From NCBI GenBank assembly GCA_008632985.1, contig QPGO01000031.1, positions 558,001 through 619,558 of the forward strand: a stretch of DNA of 61,558 nt, written 5' to 3'. This DNA is from Psammoneis japonica (lineage: Eukaryota). Of this stretch, positions 21,593 to 58,030 are shown piece after piece (position 1 is the stretch's first letter; every line of letters begins with the position of its first letter). The notes below the pieces were generated by a model. That model was not told the DNA's origin. It did no database searches and saw only the letters and a list, made by a program, of their open reading frames with translations. A program made the position numbers and the translations under genes.

Positions 21593-21814
21593 CTCGTTGG
21601 TGAGACGTTAGGGCAGAAGGCAATGAGCCAACTGCCGAGCGTCTGACAGACCGGGACCGCTGACGTCAATCTAGAATGCAGTGGAAGTCAGGGATCGCCG
21701 GATGGAGGGCCTCGGTTCCTGTCTCATTCCTTCCATCCTGTCTCATTCCTTCCAGGAAACTGAGGTTGAGAGGATGATGGTGGCGATGATGCCGCTTGAA
21801 TCCTTTTTTGCTTT
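21593..21814 (+). repeat. Split direct repeat A1
   Basis: Near-identical to 30085..30287. Carries an extra 19-bp tandem duplication (tcctgtctcattccttcca x2). Confidence 0.92.
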
Positions 21815-22929
21815 GCTTTCTTTTCCTTTGGATCGAATCACACGGCCTTGCTTGGCTCAGGCCCGCTGGCCACCTGATTGTCGCCCTCTGGCTCCTCTAA
21901 TTTTTCAACTTTACAGTTGAATTTATTCATTCATTGCGCCTGCTGCTCGGCCTTTTTCATTGCGCCCACTACTCGGCTGCATTTAAATTCATTTTTGCCC
22001 ACTGCACCGGCACTGCACCCATCCCAATCGCCCGCTGCTCGGCTTCCCTCTACCTCCAATCTTCAGCTTCATCTCGGGCCCCTCTCCATCGTGTTGTTCC
22101 TCACTGCAATCGCCACCGCCCTGAACATCCTGGACAATTCGTCAATCTTGGAGCTTTCTGCTTCACTCTCTCCAACCATGCGCGCCGCAGCGACCACCAA
22201 CTGCTCCAACCCAGCAGCGTTTCCCGTTTCCTCACGAACGGGAGCACTCGGTGCCAGTGTCACAGCAACCAATCGACAACAATGTTTTTCTGACAGTTTC
22301 GCTCGCCCTTGGGTGTCTCCAGGCCTTTCATGGTGCACCCTCAAATAAAATGGGGTCGTCTTCGCCACCGTGCCACTCTGCCCATGGCAGCTGCCGCCCG
22401 TCATTTCCACATGGTTGCCCATGAGCCACTCCCTGGTCACCACCATCTTGCCCATTCCCTGCAGCTGCTTCGTTCCTTCCTCACCAGCTGGAGAGTGAAT
22501 GCAACAGCTGTTGGTCTTTGGCGCCACATCAACAACGGAAACTAACGGCCATTTCTTTCGAGTCATCATGCCTTGTGTCACCTTCAGTGCTGTGCACACA
22601 CATTTGCCGAATTGACAAATTCAATTAACAACCACTTCAATGACACGTTTGCCACGCGTGCGTGAACTCCAACTGCCACATTTCTCCTTTCCCATCATCG
22701 CAATTGCAACAGACGATGGACGCGTTGTCGTCTTCCATTGGTCGAGCGCAATTTCCTGAGCCACATCATTGTTCCATGATGATGTGGCGCGCCACATGCC
22801 CCTCCACGCCACCTTTTCACTGAGGTGGCACTGGGAGTTTCAACCCTTTCTCTCAGTTGCACCCATTCGAAACACTCGCAATTTTGACAACATCGTTTTT
22901 GTTCCTTCCGTCTCAAGTTTTCCTCGTCG

Positions 22930-25871
22930 ATGATGCCAGCTCCTCCCAGTGCCCTGGGTGACTTCGCCCGTCAGATGGCCGGTGCGCCACCGTCTGTTTC
23001 CTCCAGCTTCAAGCACGACCCTGATAAAATCGCCCACCTTGCCACCGCCATGTCTGGCACCATCAGCCCCACCATCCGTTCGGCCATGGTCAATGATCCG
23101 CGCTCCACCATCCAAACCATTGCAGTGGTTGATGGTTTTTTACGCATGCTCATGCGCCCAACCCTCGCTTCCTTGGTTGCTTTCAATGAAGCCATCGCAC
23201 TGGCGAGCCTTGGGAACACCTTTGACAGCATCACCCCTGTCAAGGTCAAGGACATGCTGGATGAGCATGTCATCACCCTCGTTCCCAAACACATTGCGGA
23301 CTCCCTTGATCTCCCCATCAGTGACAAGAACCCGGCGACGTTGGACGCGTCTAAGCCCGACGAGGAAGGGAATGAAGTCCCACCTGGCCAAGAGTGCTTG
23401 GGGTTTGACGCCGCTTCTGCTGACGACATGCCTGAGTTTGTTTGCATTCCCCTTGCTTGCCCTTTGGCGTTGGGCGAGCACCTTTGGGTTGATGTCTCCA
23501 TTGAGGACGACATTCCTGCTTCTGTCCCCGTTTCGGCTCCCTTTTGCTCTTGGCATGCTGCTGTCCGTCACCTGATCTTGCACAATTCAGGCAAATCCCT
23601 CCAGGCATGTGATGATCTTTTCAAAGAGGCTGAGTTCGTCAACATGTTCCAAGACTGCGCCAGCTTGCCGAAGGTCCCTCTGTCGAGCATGCCGTGCTCA
23701 CCCCATGCACGGTCCATTTCGACAATGTGCACTCCATCCTCAAGGAGTTGCGCACTGCAGCTGTTTTTCGTCTTGCAGAAGACAAGGACCCTGCATCCGT
23801 TTTCACCGGAGGGTCACCAGTGGCTGGCACCCCAGACCTGGAATGCCTTGTCCGAGCTGCAGTTGAGTCAGTCACTCGCCATGACCTGGACAAACCTCAG
23901 AACACCCTTGCCAGTTCGGAGCGCAATCAACGCAAGGAGACGGATGATGTTGTCCTTTGTTGCCGTCTGTTCTTCTCGTCCATTGTTGAGGCAGTGGACA
24001 GCGATGGTCACGTCACAGACAACCTTGTCACTGCTCCCCCATTGTGCGAGGAATTCTTGTCTGTTGTTCATGCTTCCAAAAGCACTCGTGCTTTGGCACT
24101 CGCCATTGAGAACATGACACAGCATGTCAAGGATCGTGCCACCTCGGACTTGCACATCGATGGTTGTGCAGGACGTGTTCCAGCCGCACGTGAACCAAAT
24201 CGTGCACAAAAACGACATTTGCGCGATTTTTGCGCGGTCCCTAACTTACGATCGAACTTTCACCACCAAAAGTATAGATTTACACAAATATAAATGTTTT
24301 GCAACACTAACAAGACTCGTGTGAGTGTTGCAATATCATTGTTATTGTGCTATCTATGTTTTTCATTGCGTTAAAAGATTCGTAACACAACGGATGATTT
24401 TCGGCGAAAATGTTGCCGTTATTTGGATGTTACCTAAATATATTTTGCTACGATGATACTTGGTAGGTTTTCTACTTACAAAGAAATCTCAGTATAAATC
24501 AACTGACGTACAATCAGTATTGAGTCTACTGAGGAAGTTTATGATACATATCCCATGAGGATTTGAATATCACTCAAAAAACTATTTAAGTGTACATACT
24601 CAAGAAGCCTATAAAAGTCAATCCGTCTAAGTATTTTTATTAAAATGCTATATACACTAAAATATACATAAATTATATTCAAAATCCGATTGTCGTTTTG
24701 TGCGTCACCTGGGATGGAACACGTCGCAGATTTTGACATCAAGCTTTTGGATCTTCCCTTTGTCACGCGTCTGATTTTGCATGGATGGGCGCCAGTCCCT
24801 CCTGTTGTTGACCCAGACTCCATCAAGGACAAGCTTGGCATCTGTCATTTTGCCAAGCCCAACCAAGCGTGTGTCAAGTGCCTTGCGTGAATCGAGAACG
24901 GTCGCACTCTCCTTCGTCAAGAGCAGGTCGGTGAGGAGGACACCAAGAAGAACAAGAAAACCACAGACCTGTGCTTCACTGGCATGATGGATTCGCATGA
25001 AATGGTTGACACTGCAGTGGGCAATCTGTGGATCTTTTTTACCTTCGCATCAGACGCCTTCCTCGTGACCAACCCGAAAAAATTGCCGGCGGCATGGCGA
25101 GTCATTCAGGCCTTTTTGCGGGTTAAGAACAGCCCAGAAGGATGCGCTTGGGCAACTCGGCACCGGGCAATGCAGCATGTCTTCATCCACATGATCCAAT
25201 CTCTCCAGCACATCTTGTCACCTTTTGTCTCCCTTGGCAACACGCTGGCATGTCGCAATGCTCTTGCTTCCGGTGTGCAGATTGGTCCAAAAGCGATTGC
25301 CGATGCCACGGCCCAGGCCATGTCAGAGGTTGCACGCCTCACAAATGTCATTCGGAGTGGAGACTTGGGCGAATGTCGCAACGAGCCACCCATCATGAGG
25401 CTCGTGTGCCCAGCATCGTCGCGGAGTGATGCATCCAATGCTTCATCCAAAGGTTCCACAAACTCACCCGACAAACCCAGGAGCGACAATGCTCGCACGG
25501 AGGCAAACAAAGCCAAAGGTCTCGTGCATTTCAATGGCTCTGGGAAACCGCCGATTGCAGATTCAATCATGGCACCTCACCCTGTCAAGAAGAAACCTGC
25601 CATGATTTGTGGTGACTTCACAACTGTTGGCTGCAGCTGTCGGTTTGGCGAACGTTGCAACTTCTTACACCCGACGTCTGTCGAGAAACTTCTGGGCGAG
25701 GCACGTGCAGCCTACAAGAAGTTCGTTGATGATCACGCTGAACTTGCTTGGGCCAACCAGCCTTCTTCTGGTGCGCAGCTGTTGCGCTCTCACCCAACTG
25801 CGATGCAATCTAACACTTGGGCACCTGTTTCTATTCACATTCGCAGATCCAGTCTACGTTTGTGCCAATGA
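22930..25871 (+). pseudogene. gag-like ORF of the YR retroelement with a C-terminal CCCH finger; frameshifted and MITE-interrupted
   Basis: Consecutive ORFs 22930, 23694, 24690 and 24984. CGDFTTVGCSCRFGERCNFLH finger. Removing the MITE rejoins ...LHIDGCA|DFDIKLL... Confidence 0.7.
24172..24725. mobile_element. 554-bp non-autonomous TIR element (MITE) nested in gag
   Basis: Termini GACGTGTTCCA...TGGAACACGTC plus subterminal gcacaaaa(a)cgaca / tgtcgttttgtgc. GCAG is duplicated at 24168-71 and 24726-29. AT-rich interior. Confidence 0.85.
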
Positions 25872-26096
25872 CCTCGTCCCGCCGCTCATTTCCTTGCAAG
25901 ATTATCCCGCTGACCTTTCGGTCACCGACTCCGCTTCAGACACCAACAGCACGACCTCACCCGGTGACATGGAGATCCAAGAGGTCAATGAAGACTGGGA
26001 CATGGACGAATTTGCTCAGCCGATTGCAGAAGGGGTCACAGACAAGAAAGTTTCCAGTCTGTCCGATGTCAGGATTGAGAGTGCTCCCGCGGGCCG

Positions 26097-28620
26097 TTGC
26101 TCTCGATTCAAGCACGCAAGGTCTTTGTCAAGTCCCATCTTCCGTCCAAAGCACAGTGTCAACTCGACCAACCTTTTGGCAAGCCGTCCCTCAACCACTC
26201 GTTTTTTTCCGAAGTGCAACTTCGGCATGTTCTTTTGCCACTCTACAAATCAGGTGTTTTATCGCGCAAGACTCAAGCGCACCTTGAAGTGGCCTACAAG
26301 CCCGCACGATGGTTGTCCAAGCTCATGCGAGACCACCAAGGCGTTGATTTTTCACGGATCCAAGACCCCATCCCAAAGGGCGTGGAAACAGACTCCATGA
26401 TGAAGGACCACAGCCGCATGTTCACTGCCGCGGCCCTTCATTTCGATTTGGAAATCCCGGCTCTTATCTCATGCGTTGGCGGGATTCACGTTGGCGCCCA
26501 TCGTGACATTGGTGCAATTTTGCATGCCCTTCGACATGGTGGAGTAGCCCACGAGCTAGTGGATGAACTAGAGCGGATCTACAAAGTGGGGTGCCCACGT
26601 CTCTGCCAGGCAGAAGCTGCAGAAGAGAACTTTCGTGAGTTCGTCAGGCATGGCAACCACTTGTCCGTCAACGAGGTGCCACACAAGACCATGAAGGCCA
26701 TTGCGAAAGACATTCGCCGTGGGTGCGCCATCCCCTTTCACCCGGCTCTGCTCTGGTTCGTTCCGCACCTGCATCGGACGCCCCTTGGCATGGTCGACCT
26801 CCTCAAACTACACAAGTCGCCACGGAACATTTTTGACTCATCCTTCCGACCCAAACCTTGGTGCAACGCCATCAACGACTGGACAGACAAAGACAACGAA
26901 CCGGAACTCATTTTCGGCGGTTCTAAGATGCGTTTTCTTACATGGCTTTGGAACCTCCGAATCTCACACCCGACATCAGAAATCTGCCCGGGCGATGACG
27001 ATGTGGCTGGCGCGTTTCGGCACTGCAAGCACAACCCATTTGTTGTTGCAATGCACAGCTTCCTCATTTTCGGCTACCTCGTGATGGCCACTGGCCAGAC
27101 TTTCAGTGATGGACCCAGTCCGGGGAACTGGGAAGTCATTGCGCGTTGCCGCCAGCAACATGCACAGTGCCTTTGGCATCATCCAGACACACTGGAACGT
27201 GCAATGCCGTGTCACCCCAAAATCGTTTTCGAACCACCACCTCCAGACGCAATCCCGGCATTCTGCTTGCAGACGGGTCGCGGTGTGCTCCAACCTGCGA
27301 CCATCATGTCGACGATGACATGCGTGCGGACGTAGCGGAGTGCATGCCACTCACTGTCTCATCCAGCATTTTGGCGCTTTGTGCCGTCCTTGGCTTTCTG
27401 TCTGAAAAATGCCCAGACTCTTTTTCGTGGGAGAAGTTTAAGAAGCATTTTGCGCATTGCAGAAAAATCATTGGGATTTGGGTTAACACTCGTGCCATGA
27501 CGATCTCCCCACCGGACTATGAGCGCGAGCAGCTGGTGGCTGTCCTTGTGATTTGGCTTGCCCACGATTCCTTCACTCTCATTGAAGTGGCCAAACTTGT
27601 GGGCTCACTCATGGACGCCGCTCTCCTTTGCCATTGGGGACCAATCACTTTTTTTACTCTCCAGAACATGGTTCGTGCCATCCTGGCCAGGCGCTTCCAC
27701 ATGATCAAGGGTCACCACAATCGCACAAGGAAAGTGAAAGAATTCGTGGACCAGATGCCACGTGCTCTTGAGCACAGAGCACTCTCCCTTGTTTCCCAAG
27801 ATGTGGCCCGTCCACTGTGGAGTGACGGAAAACCAGCGAACATGACCACCCAGCTGCGTCAGGAGCTGACATGGCTGCATGATCATTTGTCTGACCCCAC
27901 AAATCCATGGGAGGTGAAGATTGGCCACCTTGTCCCACGCACACCAACCTTTGTGAGCACTGGAGATGCGAGCTTAGATGCCGGAGGAGCTCTCTCGGAC
28001 GACCCATGCCATTGGTTTGACGTCCTGTGGTCTGACAAGGTCAGGCGTGGCGTGCGTTTGCCCAGCAGCCACCGAGACTGCGTCCACGTCAATTGCCTGG
28101 AGCACATTGTGCAATTGCTGCAGCACGCCGCAGCCATCGTCATGCTGGAGGAAGGCCTTTTGGAGGATCTGCTCGCCAAGTTCCCGGACGGCCAATTGCC
28201 CCCGCTTCCGATCCTTCTGTCTAGGACTGACAGCATGAGCTCTCGCAAATGGACAGCCAAAGTGTCTTCCACGTCGTTGCGCGGTCAGAACCTCCTGAAA
28301 ATCCAAGGATCGTTGTTCTCACGGTCTGATCTTGGACATCAGAGCGATTGGCTCCCCGGTCACAAAAACATCAACCCAGATTTCATTTCGTGCCCGGATC
28401 TCACCATTCCCCCTGCACTTTGGTGTGCGCAGATGTTCCGGAGAATTCCGAAGCTGCGATCCTATCGTTTTTTCCAGCCAAGTCACGAGCTCGTCTCGCT
28501 AATCTCGTTGCATCTCTTCACAAGACAATGGCTGGCCCCCCCAAGTCTTCCAAGCAACTTGGGACGATTCATAGCCAGCGAATCCATCACTTCATTTTCA
28601 GTTGTGATCTGGGTCTGTCG
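26097..28620 (+). pseudogene. Reverse transcriptase + RNase H of the YR retroelement (frameshift at about 27290)
   Basis: RT motifs RNIFDSSF, DDDVAGAFRH, QTF..GPSPGNW and HHVDD. RNase H motifs TGDASL, HVNCLE, RTDS and WLPGHKNINPDFIS. Confidence 0.85.
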
Positions 28621-29662
28621 GACGATTGGCTCCTCGTCAGGGCCTCCCAAGAGCGCCGGAACTGCCAAATGGTGCTCTACGCCGCGCACCTCGCCACCGG
28701 CAGCACCTTGGCACATCGCGCCATTCGTGGTGACACGATTGCGAAGCACCTGCTGGACGCGGCATCGTTCATCAAGCGCTTTCCCAGGTGGTCCCCCGGT
28801 GACCTGCACAACAATGATCCAAGGCACTTCTTGGCTCATGATGAGGAATTTGCCCTGTGTGTCGCTCAAGTGCTTGTGGAATGCCATCGCTGGGACGGAG
28901 TCCCAGACCGCTGCGAGTCCTTTGCCATTGACATGTGGTTGTTCCTGGCTGACTTGGCCAGCAAACACGACGAAGACTCCATTTGGGCCGTGTGTCGTGA
29001 CTGGTTCGGCATCGGCTCATGCGGTGGTTTTCACCTCTCAGAATGGGCACAACACAACTGCTCCCAATGGAGTGTGTGCTTTCACCCTTGAGGACACCCA
29101 GCTTTTTGACTCCAACTTGCGCCCGCTCAGCTTTTTGGAAGCCCTTCGGCACACAGACCCGGATTCATTGTGTCTTGAGCTCACTTTCTCTTGGCAGAAG
29201 AATGGGTCGCATGGCGAGCAATGTTTGTTCACCTTTGACAGTGCACGCTGCGACATGAGCCCCGTTGCCCTGTTCCTTGGCATCTTACGATGTTTTGACA
29301 GGCTTTTTGGCATGTCATCCAAGGATGCACCCCTGAGCTTGTGTCGTCGTGAGGATGGCACTGTGCTTTCCATGACTGCAAGTGACATTTCCCACGTCAT
29401 GCGGATGGTTGCCAGTCACAAGTTCAACCTGGATCCTCGCAGGAAATCTCGCGCAAAGATCCTTTCCAAGTGGTCTTCGCACTCCATCCGTGTGGGTGCT
29501 TGCTGCATTCTGCACGCCATGGGCTTCTCGGAGGACCAAATCCAGTTTCTCCTGTGTTGGCGCTCGCGCGCTTTCGTCGCCTGCTTGCGCAATCTCGCCA
29601 TTCTGTCCAACAAGCAGAGCCAGGCGATGGCAGACCTCAGCATTGTGCCAAACATGCTTTAA
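28600..29662 (+). pseudogene. Tyrosine recombinase of the YR retroelement (frameshifted; catalytic Tyr appears as Cys)
   Basis: GFHLSEWAQ (R box), WQKNG, SHSIRVG (HxxR) and WRSRAFVACLRN, where the family consensus is W.S.AF..Y.R. Confidence 0.85.
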
Positions 29663-29889
29663 TCTTTAACCCTTTACTTCCAATGATCCATTCCACCTCG
29701 TGCGTCCACTGTGTCCATTCCAATGACAGCACAAACGGTTTTGGTGCCACAAAATTTCGCCAATTTGCGCCTTTTTCCTTTTTTCTTTTCTTTTCTTTTT
29801 TTTTTTTTTTCCGGACGCCCACTCCCACTCCAAGATGGCACTCTCCTTTGCATTTCCCTTCATTGCATGCAACTGTGAGTGTTCGACCT

Positions 29890-30502
29890 GGGCAGGATTG
29901 TGCACCTCCACTCGAGCGAATCCGCAACCCGGATTTCAAACTCTAGAATGCACGTTTCCGCCACACGCTGCAGTTTACAACTGTCCCCCACTAGCCAAAC
30001 TGCACGAGCGGCAACCAGTCGCGCATCCATCTTGGACGGAGAGTTTGCTGGCATCCAAGGTGGGACCAGGGAATCCGCTGGATTCTCGTTGGTGAGATGT
30101 CAGGGCAGAAGGCAATGAGCCAACTGCCGAGCGTCTGACAGACCGGGACCGCTGACGTCAATCTAGAATGTGGCAGAAGTCAGGGATCGCCGGATGGAGG
30201 GCCTCGGTTCCTGTCTCATTCCTTCCAGGAAACCGAGGTTGAGAGGATGATGGCGGCGATGATGCCGCTTGAATCCTTTTTTGCTTTTCCCACCCACCCA
30301 ATTCCCGGGCAGGATTGTGCACCTCCACTCGAGCGAATCCGCAACCCGGATTTCAAACTCTAGAATGCACGTTTCCGCCACACGCTGCAGTTTACAACTG
30401 TCCCCTGCTGGTTGAACTGTGCAAGCGGCAACTGGTCGCACATGCATCTTGGATGGAGAGTTTGCTGGCGTCCGAGGCGGGACCAGGGAATCCGCTGGAT
30501 TC
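29890..30502 (+). repeat. Right-end repeats B1 (29890-30085), A2 (30085-30287), B2 (30307-30502)
   Basis: B1 and B2 are both 196 bp (gggcaggattgtgcacc...gaatccgctggattc). A2 matches A1. Confidence 0.92.
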
Positions 30503-30519
30503 CGGCCGGCAAGCAAGGT

Positions 30520-30756
30520 TGTTGCGGTGTCCAGTGCGTGTTGCGCATGCGTGTGGGTCAACGCTCAGTGCAGCGCAGCGCTCGACGCTCGAACGCACTC
30601 AGGCAGACTGTGGCAAGTAATTCCAGCCATGTTGTTGCCGAAACGAGCTCACTCTCTCCACTGGGACCGTTTGGCGAAGACCACCACTGTCGCCCAATTA
30701 GTGGGTGGCGCAGAGCAACCCTCACAATTTCTAGAATCCTGTTGATTGCCGCAACA
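30520..30756 (+). repeat. Probable 5' LTR of the copia remnant
   Basis: TGTTGCGG...CCGCAACA inverted termini (TG..CA) directly upstream of gag-like sequence. No second LTR found. Confidence 0.55.
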
Positions 30757-33700
30757 ACACTTTTCTCTCGTGTCTTGTCAATTCTTAGCAACTGCGGCGT
30801 GATTTGCTCAAACGCTCAACCGACCACCGACCGATCGAGTGAATCTGGATGGAGTGGTCTGCTGCCTTGGTCACATGGTGAACAGACTTGGTCATTGTGC
30901 AAACCATGATGGGAAAGCAGTGCTTGGTGCTGTCCAAATTATGAGCTTGCAAGCTTTGGTCTGGTGGCTTTGTGATTGCCAGAAGCATGACCTCTCATTG
31001 GATGCAGGGAGCATTGTTTGATCAGGCGGCACTGGAAGATGCTCGACAGAGGAAGTGCATTGAAAAAGATGTGATTGAATGTGAAGCATTGGCCAGCTCT
31101 TCACTGGCATTCAAGTTGGAGGATTTGGATGTGATGGAGAATGCACTCCTGAACCTCTTGTCTCACACAGAAGGTTGGGGTGCTGAAAGAACCACTGCAT
31201 TGTGTGGTGAGGCCAGCAGCAGTTCCGGCAGCATTTGTTGACACTGTCGAGGAGCCCATGTGTCAATTGAGTTTGAATGGGATGGTGCTCAGCCAGGACA
31301 GTCACTCTGCACATCGTCTGTTGAAAGCTCACATGGTCAGTGCAGAAGTGGCAACTTGGATTGAAGTCACAACAACACAGAGAATTGGAGAGATGCCTTT
31401 TGGGCATGGGCAGACTGCAGCAATGGATTGCTTTCATTGCCTGTCCCACAAGGACCACAGGCTTCAAGGAAGGAGCTTGCAACTGCATTGTTGCTCAAGG
31501 CTTCACCACTGCTGCTGATTTGCACCAAGCACCACTGTCCAAGATTGATGAAATGATCAAACGATTCAAGAAGGACAACTCCGATGATGACCATGTCAAT
31601 TTCCCGCATGTGTCTCTGGTTGTTGGGAAGTTCATGGCAGGCAGCAAGGGGGGAGGAGTCACAGGCCCAAGCATTTGCCGGAGATGGTGTCACAACTTGG
31701 ATGGACCTTCTTGCTGAGTTGGAAAATGTTTGCAGGCAGGAGTTGGAGGACAATGCTCCCAAGGCCACACCTCTTTGCCAGATGCATGACTTCATCAAGT
31801 GGGAAGAGTCATTCTGGACAGAGTTGCAACACCACCACAATGCTGTGACTGGGGTGCCACTGTTGCACATCATTTGCAAGGTGTTGGACATCACTGATGA
31901 GATCTGTGCAGCTGACTGTGATGCCGTCAATGAGAACTTGATTGCAGCTGCTGCTGAGCATGATGGACAAGTGCACACAAAGGACAATCAATGCTTGTGT
32001 GACAGGCTCAAGGAGCTCATTGTTGAAGGACCCAGGTGGGCCTTTGTCAACCATTCAACCACAACAGGACTGGGCGCAATGCCTTTCTGGCCTTGAAGCA
32101 AAGAGGCAGGTTGAAGGCTTGGCACTGCCACTTGGAAGAATCGTGCACACACTCAGATGGCCACCGCAAAGCACACTGAACGAGGTCACTGCACCTTTGA
32201 CCAGTGTGTCCAATGCCGCCAAAGGGCCCACAATGACCTCCTTGACACAGGAGAGCCAGTGGCTGAGACCAAGAAGGCATCCAACTGACTGAAGGGGATT
32301 GCTGACCCCTGATTCGAAACTGACAAGAGGAGCTTTGCAGATGGTGATGATGCCAAGCTCTCCAGCTTCGAACTCTGCCAGCAGTGCATGGAGACCTCAG
32401 TGGAGAATGCCAAGAACTGCTCAGAGCAACAGTGCACTGTTGGTGCAGCTCAGAACGAACACGAAAGGGACTCCAAGAAGAAGGGCAACCCTGGAAAGCA
32501 GAAGCAGGACAAGCCCACGATTGGGGCTGGTGGTCACTGTCCTGAGGACAAATGGCTTGCCCTCAAACTGGAGGAATGTGCCAAGGTTGACAAGCTTTGC
32601 AAAAAGAAAATGAAGGAGAAGGCCAAACAGAAGTGGAAGGCTGTAGCCCTTGATGCTGAGGAGGAGGAAAGTGCTGCTGGGAAAGTCGGCAAGGTCTCCA
32701 GCGACCCTCCCGAGCCTGCTGAGCCCGTTGCTGATGGCAAACCTGCACCCAAAGAGCATGGTGCAAAGGCAGCCAGTGGAGCCAATGCTGGCAATCAGTT
32801 CGGAAGGACAGCTTACAAGCCCAGCACTTTGGTTGAGGATGCAACAATTGAGTGTAAACCTTTGAAGGAGCAATCCAACCAGAGGAATGATTGGTTGTGC
32901 CAATGAGCAAGAGGACTCTTGTTGTGTCATCTGATGACAACAAAAGTCTCAACTTGTCTGACTTGTCCAGTGTGATGCTGTCAGCACCACTCCTGTTGGT
33001 TTCACATCAATGTCTTTTGCCAGTGTGCTGATGCGCACCCTGCCTCCAGTTGCCACTGGATCATCTTCTGACTTAACATCACAAGGTGAGCTTGACTTGT
33101 GCATGGACACATGCTTGCTGGCTCAGCCTGTGCACCTTTGTTGGACCCGAGTCACACTGTCACCGTGTGGCCACACTCAGACGAGTGCAAACCAGTCCAC
33201 AATGTCCCAATCCAATCAGCTGCCACTGCTTGGACTGACCCTTCCACAGGTCAACAACCACACCTGCTCATCATGCATGAGGCCATGCATTTTGGGGACC
33301 GAGTTAAGAACTTGCTGACATGTCCCAACCAATTGCGTGCCAGCAACCTGGCTGTAGACCACATCCCAAAGCAGTTTGAGAGCACAAGCTCCCACTCCAC
33401 ATCATTTCCGGACTTGAAGGTCCAAATCCCACTCCAACTGAGAGAGATTCTGTCTGGTTTTGAAACCTGCAAAACCCACCGACAAAGACCTGGAGGAACT
33501 GCCACTTCTGGAGCAATGTCACCCACACAATGGAGCCCATCATTGGACCCATTTCCCCAGCAGGAAGATGTTGTCAAGTCAAAGCTCAACACCATCATGG
33601 GCTCGTGTCAATCCTCAGGGCTTGGCCCAAAGGGGGAGCATGGGTGGACGAATGAGGCATGATGTGTTTCTGCAATCCGGCCACACAATGATGGGTTTGA

Positions 33701-47315: not shown

Positions 47316-47690
47316 TTTGAAATGTGTTTCAAAATGTGATGACGGAAGTGTTGTCGCGTTGTTTTTGTCTCCGCGGAGGGAGGATCATCCCACGGCAATC
47401 TCAGTGCGAGTTCTCGCGTGGAAGTGCGTTACGTGCCGTGCCAGCTCGTGCGTTTGAATTACACGGATGTGCAAGTGCGGCAACGATGAGAAGCAGTCCG
47501 AGATTCAAAACAAATTTTACCGCCCAAAGGCGTCTTATCATTTCAACGCGTCTGCACATCTGTTTAAAATGACTTCACACGTCGCTCCATGCGCAGGTAG
47601 AGGCAGCACGCCGCGTTTGAAAATTTCGCGCGCGTGGAGGGCGCGACGGTAATTTTACGCATTCTGCGCACGTCACAGTTTGGTTTGGAA

Positions 47691-48620: not shown

Positions 48621-48708
48621 AGAGACAGAGGAAAGCTGAGTTGCAATCGACACTCAGTTTACTGAACATTTACAAATTTACACTGCACCGGCAAAAAAAA
48701 AAAACAAC

Positions 48709-49581
48709 TCAGTCTTCGTCGCTGTCCTGAAGCACCAAGTCGTCATCGACGTTCAGGTCAACTTCGTAGTTGAGCTCGACATCATCGTCGGCCTCTTCTC
48801 CAGCTTCTTCTGCCGGAGCTCCAATGAGACGACAGAGTTCCACAGGCAACGACCCCTCGTAGAAGCAACTGTGAAGCAAGTTCTTGTTTTGGGCGCACCA
48901 ACCGATGTGAAACTGACCACCTTCCTTCTGAAGCTCGGCAAGCGCCGCCTCGTTGCCGATCACTTCGGACCAAACAGCATCCTTCATCCAGAAGAAGTCG
49001 TCTTCAACGAAGACCTCGGTGTTGTTCTCAGGGTCATCATTCAGCTGCTTCGCAATGCACTTCCCGAGGCCGCGCACTTTAGCATCGGTTGGGACTTCTT
49101 CGAGGAAGATGAAGAAGAGACGCACGGCGCAGTTCTTGGCGTTCGTCTGCAACTCGCCCTTGTGAACCCACCTGCCAGTGCAAGGGTGGAATCCGACTTG
49201 AACCGCCCACAGAGTCCTGCTGCGAAGGTTGTCAAACAGAACCTTCTCCGACCAAACATTGGTCAAAAGGGGATTCTTGGCTTGGAGACGAAAAACGACG
49301 CCTTTCTTGCGGCCGACAGTGACGGTGGCGCAGCGCAGGAGGGCGTCCTCATCGGAATGGCTGCCATCGTCAGAACCGGCGGATTTGGAAAGCTTGAACC
49401 CGTGCTTGGCAAGGCAGTCTTCCGGTTTAAGGTCGTCGTCGGTCAAGCCGTTGGTCTTGCGGGGCGGACTTAGTTTCTTCAACAGAGCATCAGAAAACTT
49501 CGTCTTTGCCTTCTTCTGTTTGGTTTCGGCGACTTTGGCTTTCGCAGCCGGGGAGGTCGTTGTGTTTCTTTTGCGTGCCAT
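48709..49581 (-). CDS. Cargo gene: hypothetical protein with a basic N-terminus and highly acidic tail
   Basis: ATG at 49581 (MARKRNTTTSPAAKAK...) within ORF 48709..49896. Ends EEAGEEADDDVE...QDSDED. Confidence 0.6.
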   Translation of the reverse strand: MARKRNTTTSPAAKAKVAETKQKKAKTKFSDALLKKLSPPRKTNGLTDDDLKPEDCLAKHGFKLSKSAGSDDGSHSDEDALLRCATVTVGRKKGVVFRLQAKNPLLTNVWSEKVLFDNLRSRTLWAVQVGFHPCTGRWVHKGELQTNAKNCAVRLFFIFLEEVPTDAKVRGLGKCIAKQLNDDPENNTEVFVEDDFFWMKDAVWSEVIGNEAALAELQKEGGQFHIGWCAQNKNLLHSCFYEGSLPVELCRLIGAPAEEAGEEADDDVELNYEVDLNVDDDLVLQDSDED

Positions 49582-50376
49582 CGAATCAGTCGGAGAGAAA
49601 TTGTGGGAACAAAAAGTGCGATCGTTCAGAAGTGCCAAGAAAGACCCAGCAGAGCTGCGTGCATCACACCAAGGAGAACTGGCAACGTCAGCAACCAGAT
49701 TCAAACACGTCGAACTGCAACAAGGCAACCTTCCAGGTGTCAGCACTTGCAAGTGGTGTGTGGATTCAATTTGAACAAAACAGATGCAAGGATCGGAGCA
49801 CGCAAAGTCGTGCCAAGTTTGCTGAAAATGCGTAAAATCACGTGCAATTCCGTCCGTGCTTCGTGTGCATTTCAGCCGTTGCTGCCGCGCGGCCATCGCG
49901 CACGAAATCTAGTCGCCAAACGGTCGACGCCATCGCTGTCACTACATGCTGTGCCGGTAGTTAGCCAAGGTGGGCCCATCACCCATTTGGAGGATTCGCG
50001 CGCACTTTGGAAACACGAATGACGTCAATCGCATTGTTGTTGCCACACGACTGACTCAACTGCCCGCCACTCGTTAAAACGTGATTCTGCGGAATTTACG
50101 TAAAGCTGCGCCCACCACCAAGATTGCCGAAACAACTTGAACAAATCCAATTACCATGGAATTCAAGCAGATGTCGAAACAACTTGAACAAGATCCAAAT
50201 CTCATCCCATGGGATGCTCAACGTCGACGAAACTAAGTGGGACATCGCACGTCTGGTGCGAAGAAGGACGTGGGAGGAACGCACACGTCACTCTTCCGTC
50301 GAGGTGAAAGAGGCACACTTTCGTCTCACTTTTTTGTGACAGAACCTTTGCGCAAAGGGAAACGAAAAGCATCCAG

Positions 50377-51070
50377 CTGCGGTGAATGGGCCACACCGAT
50401 CGCAGTTCTCAGTTCTCACAGTGACCTGGCAAGGCAGGTTGTGAGACAACGCACAAGCTCAGCTGCGGTGACTGGACGACACCAGTCGCAGCTCTCACAG
50501 AGACCTGATCGCACAGGTTGTGAGAACACGACACAACGCTGCGGTGATCGGACAGCACCGATGCAGTTCATCAAGCAACCAACTCACTTGGCTGTGGTGA
50601 CTGGACGACACCAGTCGCAGCTCTCACAGCAACCTGATTGCACAGGTTGTGAGCAAACAACACAGCGCTGCACCTCGTAATGTAGGTTGTGAGATGACGC
50701 ACAAGCTCAGCTGCGGTGACTGGACGACACCAGTCACAGCTCTCACAGAGACCTGATCGCACAGGTTGTGAGAACACGACACAACACTGCGGTGATTGGG
50801 CAGAACCGACGCAGTTCATCAAGCAACTGACCAATTCGGCTGCGGTGACTGGACAGCACCAGTCGCAGTGCTCACAGCGACCTGATTGCACAGGTTGTGA
50901 GAAGACGACACAGCGCTGCGGTGAACGGGTGGCACCGACGCGGTTCGTTGATCAACTGGACAGAACCACTGCGGTGACTGGACGACACCAGTCGCAGTGC
51001 TGCAGGTGGCGAGAAAACACACATCGCTGTGGTGATTGGACAGCACCGATCGCAGCTTCACAGTGATCGC
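50377..51070. repeat. Hairpin-rich tandem array (~129-bp unit, about 5 copies)
   Basis: gYggtgactggac(gac/agc)accagtcRcag recurs at 50465, 50594, 50713, 50842 and 50971 (spacings 129/119/129/129). Confidence 0.9.
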
Positions 51071-51142
51071 ACTGAAAAAACAACTGTTTTTGCTGAGTGA
51101 CTTCTTGAAATTTGTTGAGCCAAAGTGTCAGCTTAAATTAAA

Positions 51143-54100
51143 ATGGACGAGGCCAACTCCCGTGTTTGCAGCGCAATCAATGGAAAGTTTGAGATGCTTT
51201 GTCTACGTGGAGACGGAGAATTTAGACCACACGCATGTTCAGTCTGTGACGTTCTGCTGAAACCTAGAGAAGTTTGCCACTTGCCGCTCGAAACATTGGA
51301 ATCAGCAAGAAACTTGCTCACCCCTTCAGACTGGAACAGCGCATCTGATTGTCTCAAGTCCTGCCACACTGTAGAGCATGAAGATGCTGATTGGATCAAA
51401 GACCTGCTGCTTTCTCCCCACGCCCAATGCGCAGCACAGGAAGACAGACGACGCGTCGATGGATTCACTTGCTGCAGCAAATGCCGAAGAAGCCTGGGAA
51501 GAGCCGTTGTGCCAATGCACGCGATGGCGAACAACTGCTGTTTCGGTGCCCCGCCGCACGAACTGTTGTCTCCAACCGAAGTGGAGTTGGCAATGCTCAC
51601 ACCAGTGAAAACACACGGGTGCTGCTTCAGTTGCCTTGGCGGCAAACAGAAGAAGCTTCAGGGAAGTCTGACATGCTACAAAGTCAAGATGCAAAGCATC
51701 GTAAGAACTGTTGTGCACTTCAACGCACTGAATTTACATCAGAATGTGGTTGCACTGATGACTGGAAAGATGACTCCGGAGCAAAGACAACTTGCGCGTT
51801 CAAAGAACAGAGTTAGGATGCACTGCATGCTGAGGGCGATGGAATGGCTGTTGCACCACAACCAAGAGTGGGTGCACCAACAGACAAATCTAGATGAAGT
51901 TGGGCGTAATCTGCGGAATCCCACACTTGTCGACAGCACCGACGAAGAAGAAGGAGAAAAGCGAACAATGAGACCTCAGAGTCATTTCATGTTTGCTTTC
52001 CTGATGGAACCATGTCTCCTGCGACCGGTGGTCAGCGCAACCTGGACTGCTTCAAAGATCTTGTGCACGAAGCTGCTGCCAACGGATTTGATTTAGAGGT
52101 GCAAGCACAGTTGTCTAAAGAATCTGCGAGTGATTTCAAAGGCAACAACTTCACCAACGCGTGTCTGCTGCAGTTTCCTTTTGGCAGAGGAGGAATCAAT
52201 GAGATGAGAATGAAGAAAGACGGAAGTCTCACAGACAGCACCAACCTTGCACACTGTGCCGACCACTTGGCACGGATTTCCCAGCCTCACTTCCATGAGC
52301 AGCTCTTCGTGTTAACATGCTGCAACTTGACAATGAAGCAAAGGATGCTGCAGAGCGCAGGGTGGAAAGTCAGGGACAAGAATCAGGCTGCACAGTTTGC
52401 AAACGAACTGACAGTGGACGATGTGGACAGAGCTGTTTGTGATCGCAACTTGGGCGAGAGAAGAGATTGTGGACTTGGGCACCACTTTTTGCGCGCACTC
52501 GACGTTGCATCTGCATCTCTGCCACACAGCAACGAAGCAGCAAAGAAAATGAGGAGAAACGCCAAAACTTGTCAGCATCATTTTGGTCAGGGTGGCATTT
52601 TCTTAACCGTCAGTCCGGACGATGCAAATTTGTTTCTTGTGCAACTGTGCTCGGGTGTCATCCTGGACCCAAACGAAGACGTGACACAACTGACGGACGA
52701 AATTCTTGCTGGCAGGGCCAAGCAACGTAATGAACTGCATCTAAAGTTTCCCGGTCTAACAGCCTTTGTATTTGAGTGCTTGTTTGACATTGCAACAGAA
52801 GAGGCAGTGGGTTGGGATCTGAGTGCCAACCAACCAAGAGAAAACTTTAACTTCTACATTGGCAGGCCAGCCGCATTTTTAGCCGCAGTTGAGGAGCAGG
52901 GACGTCTGACAGCACACGGACACATGCAGATCTGGTTCGCATCGATCAACAATGCAAGAGAGAAACTGCATTCGCCAATGAGACAGATCCGATGCGAAGG
53001 TGCTGAGCACCTTGCCAACACAGTTCAGAAGATCTGCAGCACGGAATTAATCTGCAGCGAGGACTTCAGCACCAGCGCGTTGCGTGAAGCATTCGATCAT
53101 GACTGTGCAGCACCAAAAATGTGTCGCACCTCTCCAAAAGCAGCAGACGACCAACAGCTAAGAAACCTGAGGCATGAAGACGGCCAGCAGTCGAAGAACG
53201 GAATGTTTGCTTGTTGTCATCACTGCACCAAGCACTGGACAAACGTCGAGTTTGTAGAAAGCTTTTTGCAGTCACGGCACCGTGTGCCTGGCCTGACTCG
53301 CCATCCAGACAACCACGCAAAGCAACCAAAAGCAATGTGTGCACAACACCAGCGAAGTGGTCCGCAAGGGACAACAGAGGCACATGTGCCGGACGCAGCT
53401 TACAACCATCACATGCACGTTACGAAGTCGTGTTTTCCCAAATGCGCAGAGTTACGTAAAATGCGTAAAAAAACCCCACACGAGGAACTGGACGCGCTGT
53501 CAAGGAAAAGGAAACAAGAGGAGCTCAAACCAGGTGACTGCCGTCACAGGCAACCAGCTGCTTCGTGTCCAAACAATTTAGCAAGGAACACAGATGACAC
53601 TCAGATAAAGTGGTTCAGCTGGGATGGGACTTTTGCGCATCGGCACGTGAAGGAAGTTGTTCCGAAGAGGAGAAAGTGCGATGCTTTTCAAAACGTGTCG
53701 TGCCCTGCAACAAGCAGATCAAAACTGACATGCAACACAAACATTGCTTTGTTGATGCCTGGACCGTCTGCTCAATGCACGATTGGGCACATCCTAAAAG
53801 ACACCCAGAAAGATGACACTGCATCGTACAACGAAGTGCTTCGAACTACGAACAGGACAGCGACGGAATTACGGAAACACGCATCTGATGCATCGGAAGC
53901 AATCAGACGTCTCACATGGGGTGCTTGCTCGCATGACAAGACGAACGTCATTGGACCACCACTTGCGTCTTACACAACAAGGAACGGAAGCCGTTTCATC
54001 GAATCTCATTTGACTGCATGGTGCCCCTTGAAAGACATTGTCAGCACACTAGAAAGAGACGAAGTGTCTGCGACTGTAGCCCATTTTGGCGATGCACCAT

Positions 54101-56874
54101 TCTTCCAATGCCAGGCCTTGCACTGCCTGTGTCGTCCAACAGCACTGGAGAATCTCAGTCCGTTTGCGTTTTTTAGTGAATGCGAAGTTCTTCGCAACAC
54201 AAGGAAAAATGAACACGGCATGATGATGTTCAACAACAGAGCGCACAGGCACCCGTCTTGCAATTCAACAAAGAATGAGTTTCTTCAAGGTGTCAGACAG
54301 CGACAGCAACCGCGATTGTCAAAAGTGCTTCAGTGTGATTTTCCTGATGCAGCCAAGTTTGGCAGTTGCCTCACAAATCCACAGCAACCAACAACACCAG
54401 ACAAAGAATTGTGCTGCAAGTTGGCATTGGCCTTGTTTGCGCCTTACAGAACAATGACGGAACTCAAACCAATGACCCGTGCATGCCTGTGTGAATTCCA
54501 ACTCTCCGCAGCAGCCGGTGTCATTGCAGAGGAAAACTTGAACTTCTTGCAGAACCCACAGGATGCCAAGTCCAACTGCCTTCGTCTCAAAAGCACATCT
54601 GACGATCTGCAAAGAAAGACAGAGCAATTTAGACCTGCTGACGTTGCGTTTGACTGTTGCAAAAGTGACGAGGAAGAAGGTCTTTCAGGCGCCGTTCAGG
54701 GTCAACTGCTGGATGCACTCTTGGAAGAAATGGCAGAGCAGCCAGAAGACGATGACATTGGGTTGAGCGACCAAGCAGTCATTCCTGCGCATTTGAGCGG
54801 TAAACGTGCAAGACAGAAAGGTCCACACATGGGTGGTTGCAAATGCTTGGCAGACATGCACACTGACCCACCAAACGAGGAAAGCCAGGTCAATGAACGA
54901 CAACTTTTTGAGAATCTAGAGGGCAGCGATGACACCGACGAGGAAGACCAGAATGAAGGAGTGCAACAACACATCCACAGCAGACCACTGTCAAGAGACG
55001 ACATTGTTCGAGTGACACTGACTAGAACGCAAAGAACAAGAAGGTCGTTTGAGGATGTGACAGGTTTGGAAGAACACATCAATGCACGTCAAGCAAACGG
55101 ATCTGCAGCGAGCATCGTAGACTGGGCTAGGAAAGCAAGACTGGATGGGCAACAGCAGCGTGCCTTTGAAATTCTAGCAGGAACCTTTGTGCTCACTTGC
55201 TGTCAAGACGCTCTTCAAGACGAGACGTCACGCAATGGACTTAATGGGAGAAATGGCAGACACGAATTCGCAACAAACCTTCGCCGATTGAAGAAACTCG
55301 TGGAAGTGCAAAGACGCAGAACGTTGCAACTTGTGTGTTTTTTACATGGTGCAGGTGGAAGTGGCAAATCAACCACAATGGACCTCGTCGTGGGGTGCGG
55401 AAGAGAGTGTTGCTCACTTGTTGAGCAGCCATTCACAACAAGCACAATCAGAACAACTGCACTGACCGGAGTGGCTGCCACTGTTCTCAAAGGGGACACA
55501 ATCCACCGAGTTGCATGCCTCATGAGAAGAAAGCAAATGACCGAAGAGCAAATTGAAGCATGGTCAGACACGAGACTTTTGGTGGTAGACGAGATTTCTT
55601 TTGCAAGCAAGAGAGAACTGGAAAAACTCCATGAGAATTTAACAGTGTTGAAGAGCGAATTGAGCAAGCCGTGCGGTGGCATGAACATTGTTTTCGCAGG
55701 TGACCTCAGGCAACTAGAACCAGTCGGAAAAGGAGTGAAACCACTGTACAAAGATGTGTGTCCCGAGTTTCACGAGTGGATCAACTGCCACATAGAACTT
55801 CGTGGTGTGCACAGGTTTAAAGACGATCCATCATGGGGAAAACTGCTCAAGAGATTCCGCACTGGTGAGATCACAGTTGACGATGTGGAGCACATCAACG
55901 AACGAGTAGTTCAGAACAAAGATGATCTGCCCAGTGACCTCTGCTGTGCTGCGCACGCAAATAAGGACAGAGATGCAATTGACACTGGCCCATTCGAAAA
56001 AAGAGTAAAAACACTGCACAGAAGAGATGGAGACGTCCTTGACTCAATGTTGATTTTCAGTGACGACTTGCAGGTGCAGAATGGCACGAGACTCTACCAA
56101 CCATTTCCGGTTTGCAACAGCTTCTGGAACAACTGTGGTGAAGGAGACGTTGTCATGCAATCAGGAAGAATGGATCCAGTCTTACGAATTTACAGAGGAT
56201 GCAGAGTCATGACACCTTTCAACGAAAATGCAGCAAACGGTCAAGCAAACGGAACGCAAGCCACTGTTGACAAGGTCGTTCTCAAACCAGGACAGGAACC
56301 AAGACCAGTGACTTTAGACAACAACATCAGCATTCCTGCTGCACTTGCCAGTCAGGTGGACCATGTTGCATTGGAACACTGCAACAAAAGCATCGACCCC
56401 GCGAAGTTTTTAGTTGAGCCAAAAACAAATGCTTTCAGGGCTTGCATCGCCAAGCCCAGCCTAATTTTAGAAGAAGGCGACAAACAAAGACACACTTTCC
56501 AACTGAAGGCAACCCAGCTGCTGTTTGTCATCAACAATGCCACTGCAGGGCACAAACTGCAAGGGAGTGGAGTCCCGCAGTTGTTTGCACACTCTTGGAG
56601 CCACACTCAGAATTGGGTGCATGTTGTGCTCTCCAGAGTAAAGACCAGAGAAGGGCTGTTCATGCAAAAGCCACTGAGCAAGGACCTGCGAAAATGCAAG
56701 GTCCCAGAAGGCTACAAAGCCTTGACAAGACTCATGAAGGAGAGAAGCACCACGCATTTTTCTCAGCAACAGTGCGCAGAAACACCAATGCAGTGCGCAA
56801 ACATCAGATTAGGATGCTCAACCACTGTGCAACCATTTGGCGACCCCAACCGTAAAAATGCGGAAATTTCGTAA
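51143..56874 (+). pseudogene. RepHel: DUF6570-like region + HUH Rep + Pif1-family SF1B helicase (frameshift at about 51960; catalytic Tyr mutated)
   Basis: Rep motifs FPFGRGG, IFLTVSPDD, VEEQGRLTAHGH and QCTIGHILK (YxxxY..K). Helicase motifs GAGGSGKS, TGVAA...GDTIH, VVDEIS, AGDLRQLEPV, GHKLQG and VHVVLSR. Confidence 0.92.
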
Positions 56875-58030
56875 AATGGAATGTTTCGATTAGATCAGCA
56901 CATTGCGCAGAAATCTGCACATGCGTCACACAACGTCGAATGGATTTTAACCAACAAACCAAGAAACGCGAATGCAACCGTCACAGAAAACGTAGCAATG
57001 GAGAAAACATGGATTTGCAACAACAAACAAAGAAGGCAGACGAGCCAAAGAAAACTGGTGAGGACAAGAAAAAGGTGCAGACACGTGCGGAACTTCTTCA
57101 GTCATTGATGAATGAGGAAGACGAAGAGGAGATTGCCTTGGAAGAAGCAAGAGCGGCGTTTGACCTTGCTTCGGGAAATTTTGATGTCACTTCTGCACTT
57201 GTGCAAGACAACACTGACAGTGGACAGTCATCATGTGGAAACAACAGTCGCGCCCAAGGATGATTCAACCATGGAGGAGCTAAAGGCAGCATGTGCAGCG
57301 GCGATTCCACAGCGGTCGGGGAGATTTTTCACCGAGGAGGAGATGGCGGAGCAGGAGAAGGAGCAAGCAAAGTCCCTTCAGAAGAAGTGTGGCCAGAAAG
57401 AATGGAATTGAGCAAATTACAAACAACTGTTTGGCAAAGACAACCGCATCAACACTTAAAATGCATGCACATGGACTTTCACTTGAGCCGCCGCGGATTG
57501 AGTGTGGCCACAAATGAGGACCAACTGTTTGGCAAAGAAACTGTGACAATGCGTAAATTTCGTACATTTCCACATTCACTTAATCCAACGCAGCTTGCCT
57601 TGGACAACATCAACATGCACAACTGGACAACATCAATGTGCACAGACAGCCTCATGAAACCTCACAGAAGACAGAACGGTCAGAAGCAAAACAACCAGCA
57701 CCACGCACNGCATGTTGGTCATGTCGCGTGGGTCGCGCAAAAGTGCGCACCGAAATGACCGTCATGTGTTGTAATTAATTCGAACGCCCGGCGCAAAATG
57801 CAGCAAAATGATTGGTGCAGGCAATCGTCATGGCTCTATTTTCTGACAGTAGCGAGGGCGGCAATCCAAAATCTTTCGGTTTCAGACTTCGATCTAGAGA
57901 GTTCCACCTAAAAAAGAGGAGGAACCAATTTGTTTCCCGCCATATCACGCGCAAGTGGATGATGATTCGCGCGGAGCCTCACATCTCTCCACCCTCGCTC
58001 AGCCGCGCAAAGCCAGAAAATCAAACAACC

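Follow-up and report, generated by a model that had tools for sequence, protein, structure and literature searches.

To our knowledge, eukaryotes offer almost no examples of heritable, enzyme-like DNA hypermutation directed at adenine or thymine, and both the repeat-induced point mutation (RIP) of fungi and the APOBEC/AID enzymes act on cytosine. Here we describe a 61,558-base stretch of eukaryotic DNA ('the window' hereafter; 79 of its bases are N) in which a Helitron and a retroelement that we file as an Ngaro-type tyrosine-recombinase (YR) element have lost most of their TpA dinucleotides to TpG and CpA. The closest described system is that of the alga Bigelowiella natans, where 231 of 302 nuclear point mutations found in 15 mutation-accumulation lines were reported to fall within integrated giant-virus and virophage regions, 230 of these 231 being A>G or T>C and all 230 lying on TpA (Mettrop et al., bioRxiv 10.64898/2026.01.13.699255). 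According to the same preprint the rate was ~6e-7 per site per generation, about 1000 times background, and was seen in only some of the lines; the genome carries 124 TpA-poor, CpA- and TpG-rich clusters, its TpA-poor coding sequences are enriched in reverse transcriptase (RT) and DDE domains, and adenosine deamination is put forward as the mechanism, with mention of an ADAT2 homolog.

The process recorded in the window is the same in kind as this TpA-only A>G/T>C hypermutation. As the preprint describes for B. natans, TpA gives way to TpG or CpA on both strands, the change keeps to integrated foreign DNA and contrasts sharply with the immediate surroundings, and the long-term footprint is TpA-poor DNA rich in CpA and TpG. 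The mutations of B. natans, however, were measured de novo, whereas the process in the window is known from its footprint. The targets differ as well: the reported B. natans targets are viral inserts, single-copy for the giant virus and virophage and mildly depleted (Rho TpA 0.45, giant-virus), while those in the window are a Helitron and an Ngaro-type retroelement, one of them high-copy, with observed/expected (O/E) TpA ratios of 0.04–0.20. Relative to the preprint's account, then, what is new here is the transposon targets, an ATA/TAT context preference, the decay of CpG alongside and the loss of catalytic tyrosines. A full-text search of the literature returned no description of TpA>TpG/CpA hypermutation of DNA apart from this preprint, which supersedes one statement of an earlier sequence-only reading of the window, namely that it knew of no described pathway.

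The two cytosine-directed systems offer looser parallels. Like RIP, the process in the window is a heritable hypermutation of mobile or duplicated DNA that proceeds by transitions in a dinucleotide context and inactivates the element; but RIP changes C>T mainly at CpA, raises TpA, lowers GC content and makes stops, whereas here A:T becomes G:C at TpA, GC content rises, and both TpA and stop codons are removed, so that the C>T change at CpA with TpA gain and GC loss that marks RIP is not what the window contains. Neither RIP nor the decay of 5-methylcytosine (5mC) can produce a loss of TpA, as the sequence-only reading had argued, although it erred in having 5mC decay raise TpA, since what such decay raises is TpG and CpA. 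With APOBEC/AID the process would have in common that foreign nucleic acid is hypermutated by an enzyme, in a specific context, as a form of innate defence, but those enzymes turn C>U (G>A) on single-stranded intermediates of replication, usually with a strand bias, whereas the change here affects A:T pairs, strand-symmetrically, in the chromosome.

The depletion itself is deep and closely bounded. In 1-kb steps, TpA O/E falls to 0.00–0.31 across 22–24, 25–36 and 44–58 kb, where TpG and CpA rise to 1.1–2.0, and ranges from 0.28 to 0.86 over the remainder. By block, the ratio is 0.10 and 0.13 in the left (21593–24206) and right (24703–30502) parts of the YR element, 0.06 in the adjoining 30503–35650, 0.04 in a short stretch at 40780–41620, and 0.20 and 0.19 in the two parts of the block that holds the Helitron (43990–50423 and 50424–57900), compared with 0.54–0.60 in four blocks of host DNA. 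At the host ratio the depleted blocks together would hold 919.6 TpA; they contain 231 (Poisson P ~1e-162). TG and CA are each enriched in these blocks, and therefore both strands have been affected; GC content is 0.50–0.55, compared with 0.46–0.47 in host DNA. The edges of the depletion are sharp to within ~50–100 bp of the element ends, with adjoining host genes normal and no leakage into them, and the transitions are also abrupt at 200-base resolution, which reveals an AT-rich, TpA-normal island at 24.2–24.8 kb. Stop codons follow suit, with 40 TAA, 41 TAG and 426 TGA in 24.8–35.6 kb compared with 404, 383 and 853, respectively, in host DNA at 1–21 kb, and it is because TAA and TAG are almost erased that open reading frames (ORFs) crowd all six frames. 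The sequence-only reading was thus right to describe elements almost devoid of TpA on both strands, bounded sharply against a TpA-normal host gene and a lipase gene, and to trace the six-frame ORFs to the loss of TAA and TAG.

The direction and timing of the change can be read from repeats that were once alike. We compared five pairs of repeats in the window, leaving out the tandem pair 50672/50801, which aligns poorly. Where two copies differ at two adjacent positions, 9 of 13 such differences set CA against TG and none sets TA against CG (P=3.3e-6 against a generous 1-in-8 null); the remaining differences comprise 4 single TA/(TG or CA), 23 CpG/(TpG or CpA), 9 other transitions and 9 transversions. 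An ancestral TpA mutated on opposite strands in the two copies would leave just such a CA/TG doublet. Five of the nine doublets lie in the split direct repeats of the YR element, all on the forward strand: terminal repeat A1 (21593–21814) and its partner A2 (30085–30287) differ by two CA/TG doublets, one TA/CA, three TG/CG and one 19-nt indel, and internal repeat B1 (29887–30085) and its partner B2 (30304–30502) by three CA/TG doublets, one TA/TG, seven CpG-type differences, one CC/TT doublet, one other transition and one transversion. In elements of this kind A1 and A2, and likewise B1 and B2, are described as starting out identical to each other (PMC4157794), and the hits therefore postdate copying. 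Copies 1 and 2 of a 248-nt tandem repeat upstream of the Helitron gene differ by two further CA/TG doublets, two TA/CA, eight CpG-type differences and others.

The proteins tell the same direction of change. The Rep-helicase ORF of the Helitron (51910–56871, forward strand, 1654 aa) contains exactly nine tyrosines, or 0.54% of its residues, compared with 2.72–4.09% in 28 homologs, and its cysteine and histidine contents (4.11% each) exceed the homolog means of 2.53% and 2.88%. Tyrosine is retained in 3 of the 14 columns that hold it in at least 80% of the 28 homologs and is otherwise replaced by Cys (6), His (3) or Phe (2); other residue types are mostly kept at 79–100%, with the exceptions of Val (58%) and Met (2/4), and four Val>Ala replacements are those that GTA>GCA would yield. 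The Rep catalytic pair (nt 53776–53790, forward strand) reads Cys at residue 623 and His at residue 627, where 28 of 28 and 27 of 28 homologs, respectively, have Tyr, and the family-invariant Tyr 1571 of the helicase motif YVxLSR has become His (HVVLSR). The retroelement keeps none of six tyrosines conserved among 60 family members (His 3, Cys 2, Arg 1) while keeping 62–100% of other residue types, and a relative used as a control keeps all six. Over both elements eight tyrosines have become Cys and six His, a near balance which shows that both strands have been hit. Split by codon phase, the TpA O/E of the Helitron ORF is 0.10/0.30/0.15 and that of the retroelement ORF 0.05/0.14/0.10, with the minimum at Tyr codons, compared with 0.33–0.59 in three host ORFs; coding capacity has not been shielded by selection. 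In these respects the sequence-only reading, which counted nine tyrosines amid abundant Cys and His, pointed to the replaced Rep pair and helicase motif and proposed missense inactivation at catalytic tyrosines, holds up well. Judged from these residues, the Helitron of the window is a dead copy of a true Helitron, its ORF open but its product catalytically dead.

The depletion is not a trait of the element families, and the signature is host-specific: none of 80 related retroelement loci from public metagenomes has a TpA O/E below 0.3 (range 0.42–0.92, median 0.64), none of 46 Helitron homologs has less than 2% Tyr, and Tyr-poor members number 2 among 90 proteins of the retroelement family. 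Those two proteins (P0048, Tyr 0.62%, and P0122, Tyr 1.21%) come from public records and are rich in Cys and His; copies in other public assemblies have probably been subject to the same process. Taken together, these observations support the view that the depletion is mutation of TpA to TpG or CpA, in the AT>GC direction, on both DNA strands, after insertion, and confined to mobile-element DNA.

Sequencing data extend the comparison from repeats in the window to a family of copies. Three runs of one sample contain the locus, and contigs of one of these, run X1, were matched to 38001–58000 at 80% likeness. Summed word depth, which is not the same as copy number, is ~60 over host DNA and 2,500–5,500 over 44.0–58.0 kb, and the entire 44–58 kb block belongs to a high-copy family. 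Among 4,039 X1 contigs, 1,341 are at least 99% alike, 1,231 are 95–99%, 1,128 are 90–95% and 339 are less than 90% alike, while host pieces of 2.1 and 2.9 kb are matched with no differing letters. Variable places divide into A>G (95), T>C (93), C>T (77), G>A (77) and transversions (38); among 24 listed variant rows inside the block, 10 form five CA/TG doublets, 2 are TA/TG, 8 are CpG-type and 4 are other. Such CA/TG doublets among family copies mean that the copies bear independent hits, contrary to the possibility, allowed for in the sequence-only reading, that all copies of a family might share identical codons. As regards expression, none of the listed holders of the locus is an RNA data set, and run X2, which behaves like RNA, has no cover over 44.7–58 kb; neither observation is used as evidence.

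The TpA that survives in the depleted blocks is unevenly distributed with respect to its neighbours. Relative to host DNA, survival is 0 for ATAT (0 vs 108 in host), 0.01 for ATAC/GTAT, 0.05 for ATAG/CTAT, 0.08 for ATAA/TTAT and 0.10 for GTAC, and rises to 0.30 for CTAC/GTAG, 0.36 for CTAA/TTAG, 0.45 for CTAG, 0.46 for TTAA and 0.50 for GTAA/TTAC; the trinucleotide ATA/TAT stands at 0.03 of its host frequency. This bias is a pattern of survival rather than a measured preference, the products being confounded by ancestral composition, and it may reflect either A at −2 or T at +1. It suggests a property that any candidate enzyme must explain. Ordinary CpG decay also acts on the same elements (CpG O/E 0.29–0.80 in the depleted blocks) and adds to their excess of TG and CA.

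Not all DNA inside or near the targets is affected. The YR element is interrupted by an AT-rich insertion of ~490 bp resembling a miniature inverted-repeat transposable element (MITE), with short terminal inverted repeats (24207–24702), which carries 52 TpA (O/E 0.91), although the 700 bp on its left hold none and the next one to its right lies 338 bp past its end. A second AT-rich MITE-like element of ~490 bp with 37-nt inverted ends (40043–40533) has a TpA O/E of 0.74 and serves as an internal control; the two have no mutual similarity at E<=1e-5, and summed depth in run X1 near 40.0–40.7 kb is ~5 times that of the flanks. Close by, the short relic at 40780–41620 has 2 TpA vs 52 expected (CpG O/E 0.46), and it lies on X1 contigs of depth 60–64, roughly the depth of single-copy DNA, with one diverged second contig. 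A trigger by duplication, as in RIP, fits the high-copy 44–58 kb block, yet the MITE of ~5 times flanking depth is spared and the relic, at roughly single-copy depth, is depleted, and the giant-virus target that the preprint describes in B. natans, also single-copy, bears against duplication as the cue. What had been called a repeat-directed host process thus stands as a TpA mutation of mobile-element DNA, with 'repeat-directed' left unproven.

We consider it highly probable that the host subjects its integrated mobile-element DNA to a TpA-specific A:T>G:C mutation process. Under this proposal the A of TpA would be changed to G on either strand, giving TpG or CpA, and the process would act on chromosomal copies post-insertion and halt at the element edge. 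Because tyrosine codons are TAY, tyrosines would become Cys (TGY) or His (CAY), and the catalytic tyrosines of the Helitron Rep and of the retroelement recombinase would be removed; because TAA and TAG would be erased and no new stop could arise, long frames would persist that are open but dead. The chemistry we infer is deamination of adenine in DNA to inosine, which is read as G; the enzyme would be a deaminase with a preference for T at −1, and the targeting would follow silencing or foreignness rather than copy number alone.

Several points weigh against this proposal. No de novo mutation was observed, and the evidence is a footprint. The spared nested MITE means that the process either has ceased at this locus or ignores some DNA inside its targets; it implies that action ended before the MITE was inserted, or that targeting follows sequence family, or that there is a length threshold, and it is compatible with episodic action without demonstrating it. 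An A>G change on one strand leaves the same signature as T>C on the other, and deamination is our interpretation of it. The only deaminase-like match within the window (7522–7836, see below) falls under its cutoff and is not credible. As to the sequencing data, run X1 comes from the sole sample with the locus, may be the assembly's own data and so is not independent support; its depth data cover 38001–58000 rather than the elements at 21.6–35.65 kb, and the variant detail rests on 40 listed rows of ~400.

The ambiguity of strand leaves room for one alternative that we regard as unlikely, in which a thymine-side or modification-driven chemistry acts at TpA of silenced DNA, with oxidised or otherwise modified thymine, or methylated adenine, mispairing or being misrepaired to give T>C or A>G, so that a different enzyme reaches the same outcome with the same targeting. 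The strand-symmetric signature (TG and CA both up; Tyr>Cys 8 and Tyr>His 6) is silent on the base attacked, and the CpG decay in the same blocks (O/E 0.29–0.80) is consistent with base modifications on the elements; but there is no direct evidence for such a chemistry, and deamination is the more economical choice in that the known adenosine deaminases ADAR, Tad2/3-Ame1 and OLD are described as preferring U or T at −1. For ADAR a U at −1 is cited in the B. natans preprint (bioRxiv 10.64898/2026.01.13.699255), and Tad2-Tad3-Ame1 and the OTT_1508-like OLD-1/2 of Neurospora are reported to carry out A-to-I RNA editing, again with U at −1 (PMC12754623).

These RNA editors share the 5′ U/T of the target, and OLD and ADAR have been linked to antiviral or anti-repeat defence, but they act on RNA, the change is not inherited, and activity on DNA is not reported in the cited sources. 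Could edits nevertheless have been fixed in DNA, through element transcripts edited at UpA by an ADAR-, Tad2/3- or OLD-like enzyme and then reverse-transcribed and integrated? The described U(−1) preference of RNA editors would fit the TpA context, and one of the affected elements is a retroelement, yet we judge this route very improbable: the Helitron, a DNA element, lies in a block that is equally depleted, which largely refutes the route there; the hits fall on the two strands in about equal measure; the depletion extends to non-coding repeats; and repeat copies of the retroelement diverged by CA/TG doublets after they were copied. The earlier argument that action on both strands of a DNA element speaks against RNA editing is strengthened accordingly, by the Helitron and by repeat copies that diverged after insertion.

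A poverty in TpA that is intrinsic or selected, whether because the elements came from a TpA-poor donor, evade a nuclease that cuts TA or an RNase that cuts UA, or are adapted in codon usage, has slightly less to recommend it still. Moderate avoidance of TpA is general (0.54–0.60 in the host, 0.42–0.92 in the relatives), but here catalytic, family-invariant tyrosines have been replaced, as selection for function would forbid; the depletion is deepest at Tyr codons; none of the 80 related loci is depleted; copies differ by CA/TG doublets; and unrelated elements and non-coding repeats share the signature. Least probable of all is an artefact in which modified bases in repeats were miscalled, A as G, by a long-read platform, for although there is no record of which platforms produced the assembly and run X1, and the sample may be the assembly's own, word-based contigs of X1 reproduce the sequence (depth ~60 in the flanks, 1,341 contigs at least 99% alike in the block), P0048 and P0122 from other public records share the Tyr poverty, and an artefact would not follow element edges to 50 bp yet spare a nested MITE.

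The retroelement spans 21593–30502 on the forward strand and is recognized by its split repeats, the fold of its RT and a Cre-like tail. Its A1-B1-A2-B2 split direct repeats match the Ngaro layout: this order is described for PAT, Ngaro and Viper elements, and in Ngaro the internal repeats follow the recombinase (PMC4157794), as B1 does in the window. Its large ORFs have no Pfam match, and the RT has neither a Pfam nor a PDB sequence hit and was found by fold search only. A relative, P0047, led to a family of 89 proteins of ~900–950 aa, none with a Pfam domain, and maps by tblastn to 26115–27251 and 27110–28609 in two frames (aligned at 56–62%), outlining an RT/RNase H-like coding region at 26115–28609 (forward strand). 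Near 27.2 kb (27200–27260) a frameshift breaks the RT frame in two. An AlphaFold model of the family, built on 60 members, has a mean predicted local distance difference test (pLDDT) score of 89.2 and a predicted TM-score (pTM) of 0.87; it matches the RTs of foamy virus, cauliflower mosaic virus (CaMV), Moloney murine leukaemia virus (MMLV), Ty3 and human immunodeficiency virus (HIV), with a best E of 4.8e-9 and 343 matches at E<=0.001, and all the top Foldseek matches listed are RTs. The family (P0047, P0053–P0140; loci L001–L080) is widespread, with 89 proteins and 239 confirmed metagenome stretches. With a predicted fold that is confidently RT, yet neither a Pfam domain nor a PDB sequence match, it represents a gap in the family libraries for Ngaro-like elements.

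Downstream of the RT, the tyrosine-recombinase-like C-terminal part (28607–29659, forward strand) has a tail that reads AFVACLR. The last 351 residues of the ORF have no Pfam hit; 15 of their 17 weak PDB matches (E ~1) are to Cre, and in this weak alignment (E ~1) the H-x-x-R and Trp boxes line up, WSSHSIRVGA against WSGHSARVGA in Cre. The nucleophile Tyr of the recombinase would presumably stand where AFVACLR reads Cys. The sequence-only reading had reported a YR nucleophile replaced in AFVAC, and the motif is indeed there, while the identity of the recombinase comes from the weak Cre alignment.

The Helitron sits in a high-copy repeat block (43990–57900, forward strand), defined by its TpA O/E of 0.19–0.20 and its summed word depth. 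Its large ORF joins a Rep domain (Helitron_like_N, Pfam E 1.1e-9) to a helicase of PIF1 type (Pfam E 2.3e-14), with an AAA_30 domain also matched, and has 46 homologs at no more than 46% identity, most of them ~1,900 aa with DUF6570 fused and nearly all sharing its domains. In the window the N-terminal DUF6570 part (51137–52093, forward strand, Pfam E 1.7e-12) and the Rep-helicase ORF, which begins at 51910, are in different frames, though fused in the homologs. This frame break (51910–52093) and the RT frameshift are indels on top of the point mutations. Upstream of the gene lie the tandem 248-nt repeats, in about three copies (50424–51048, forward strand), and farther upstream two copies of a tandem 96-nt unit (46987–47181), which differ by CA/TG doublets as well. 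Nothing recognizable as Helitron termini or a 3′ hairpin was seen by eye at 43.9–44.1 or 57.7–58.0 kb, where no systematic search was made. An ORF at 45021–45644 (forward strand) is weakly SET/PR-like (Pfam SET E 0.039; PDB matches to MECOM and PRDM16 at E 0.7–1); it does read PGEEFLCRC, with Cys where a SET Tyr had been said to be lost, although its identity as SET is weak.

A third class of element, copia, had also been named among the targets. Searched in six frames with X at stops, neither 30500–35601 nor 43990–50423 yielded a Pfam family at E<=0.01, and no pair of long terminal repeats (LTRs) was found, so that the Helitron and the YR retroelement stand as affected classes and a copia LTR retrotransposon is not confirmed. 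The stretch 30503–35650 is unclassifiable and the most decayed of all (CpG O/E 0.29, TG 1.79, CA 1.67), and it may be an older target in which the two decay processes have run near completion. The sequence-only reading mentioned neither this CpG loss nor the MITE-like nature of the TpA-normal island.

The host genes of the window are TpA-normal where they adjoin these elements. A gene for a protein with cNMP-binding and DUF6909 domains (35700–38261, forward strand) abuts the depleted DNA, and a class-3 lipase gene (41953–43729, reverse strand; Lipase_3 E 6e-14) has four GT-AG introns, for which CT..AC joints in run X2 skip 96, 91, 83 and 108 nt, with 5′ ends GTAAG or GTAGG and 3′ ends CAG. Other genes are those of an FG-GAP repeat protein at the start of the window (2–802, forward strand), an intron-free adenine deaminase with Amidohydro_1 and Adenine_deam_C domains (17885–19663, forward strand) and a Cu/Zn superoxide dismutase of at least two exons (57812–58603, forward strand). 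Introns of the host are short and of the GT-AG type, several long ORFs lack introns, and two genes are of bacterial type, the nearest Atlas clusters being Bacteroidota for the adenine deaminase and Spirochaetota for the cNMP-binding and DUF6909 protein. A Pfam search of 40 further host ORFs turned up no domain diagnostic of a lineage. With its long intron-free ORFs the host seems unlikely to be B. natans; were it B. natans after all, the window would carry the preprint's finding over to named transposon families. It is possible that these two intron-free, bacterial-looking genes are horizontal transfers into a eukaryote whose other genes bear introns.

Neither of two deaminase-like genes in the window is a convincing mutator. 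The adenine deaminase is of the free-base amidohydrolase type and is not proposed to act on DNA. A 105-aa ORF at 7522–7836 (reverse strand) resembles OTT_1508-like deaminases at E 0.00099 and 19.5 bits against a Pfam cutoff of 27, reads HAQE...CILC without the expected Glu of the H-x-E ... C-x-x-C centre, and has three library hits, all repeat proteins without a deaminase domain, with no true homologs among 1.84 billion representatives; it is probably a chance match or a decayed fragment. By analogy alone, the OTT_1508 clade would be a reasonable place to seek the enzyme, being grouped with TadA/Tad2 and AID/APOBEC and described as expanded in basidiomycetes (PMC3239186, Iyer et al. 2011).

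For annotators, the window is a warning that long six-frame ORFs in TpA-erased regions are not genes; conversely, ORFs poor in Tyr and TpA and rich in TpG and CpA offer a simple genome-wide marker with which to survey lineages for the process. A natural DNA editor that turns A>G in a T-A context would be of interest for base editing, too. As for the biology, the window displays the end state of the process on ordinary transposons, with ~70–90% of TpA lost, tyrosines turned to Cys or His, and frames left open. We tentatively suggest, as a possibility that falls somewhat short of probable, that the host is a eukaryote other than B. natans and that TpA hypermutation is a wider anti-transposon genome defence, the mirror image of RIP, which would prefer A-T-A, act on both strands of the chromosome together with CpG methylation, be targeted by silencing or homology rather than by position (hence the spared nested MITE), and be carried out by an enzyme that works on DNA and is related to the T(−1)-A adenosine deaminases (of the TadA/ADAT2 or OTT_1508-like kind). 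If the host is indeed not B. natans, it would be a second lineage with the process, which would then reach beyond the viral inserts of one alga.

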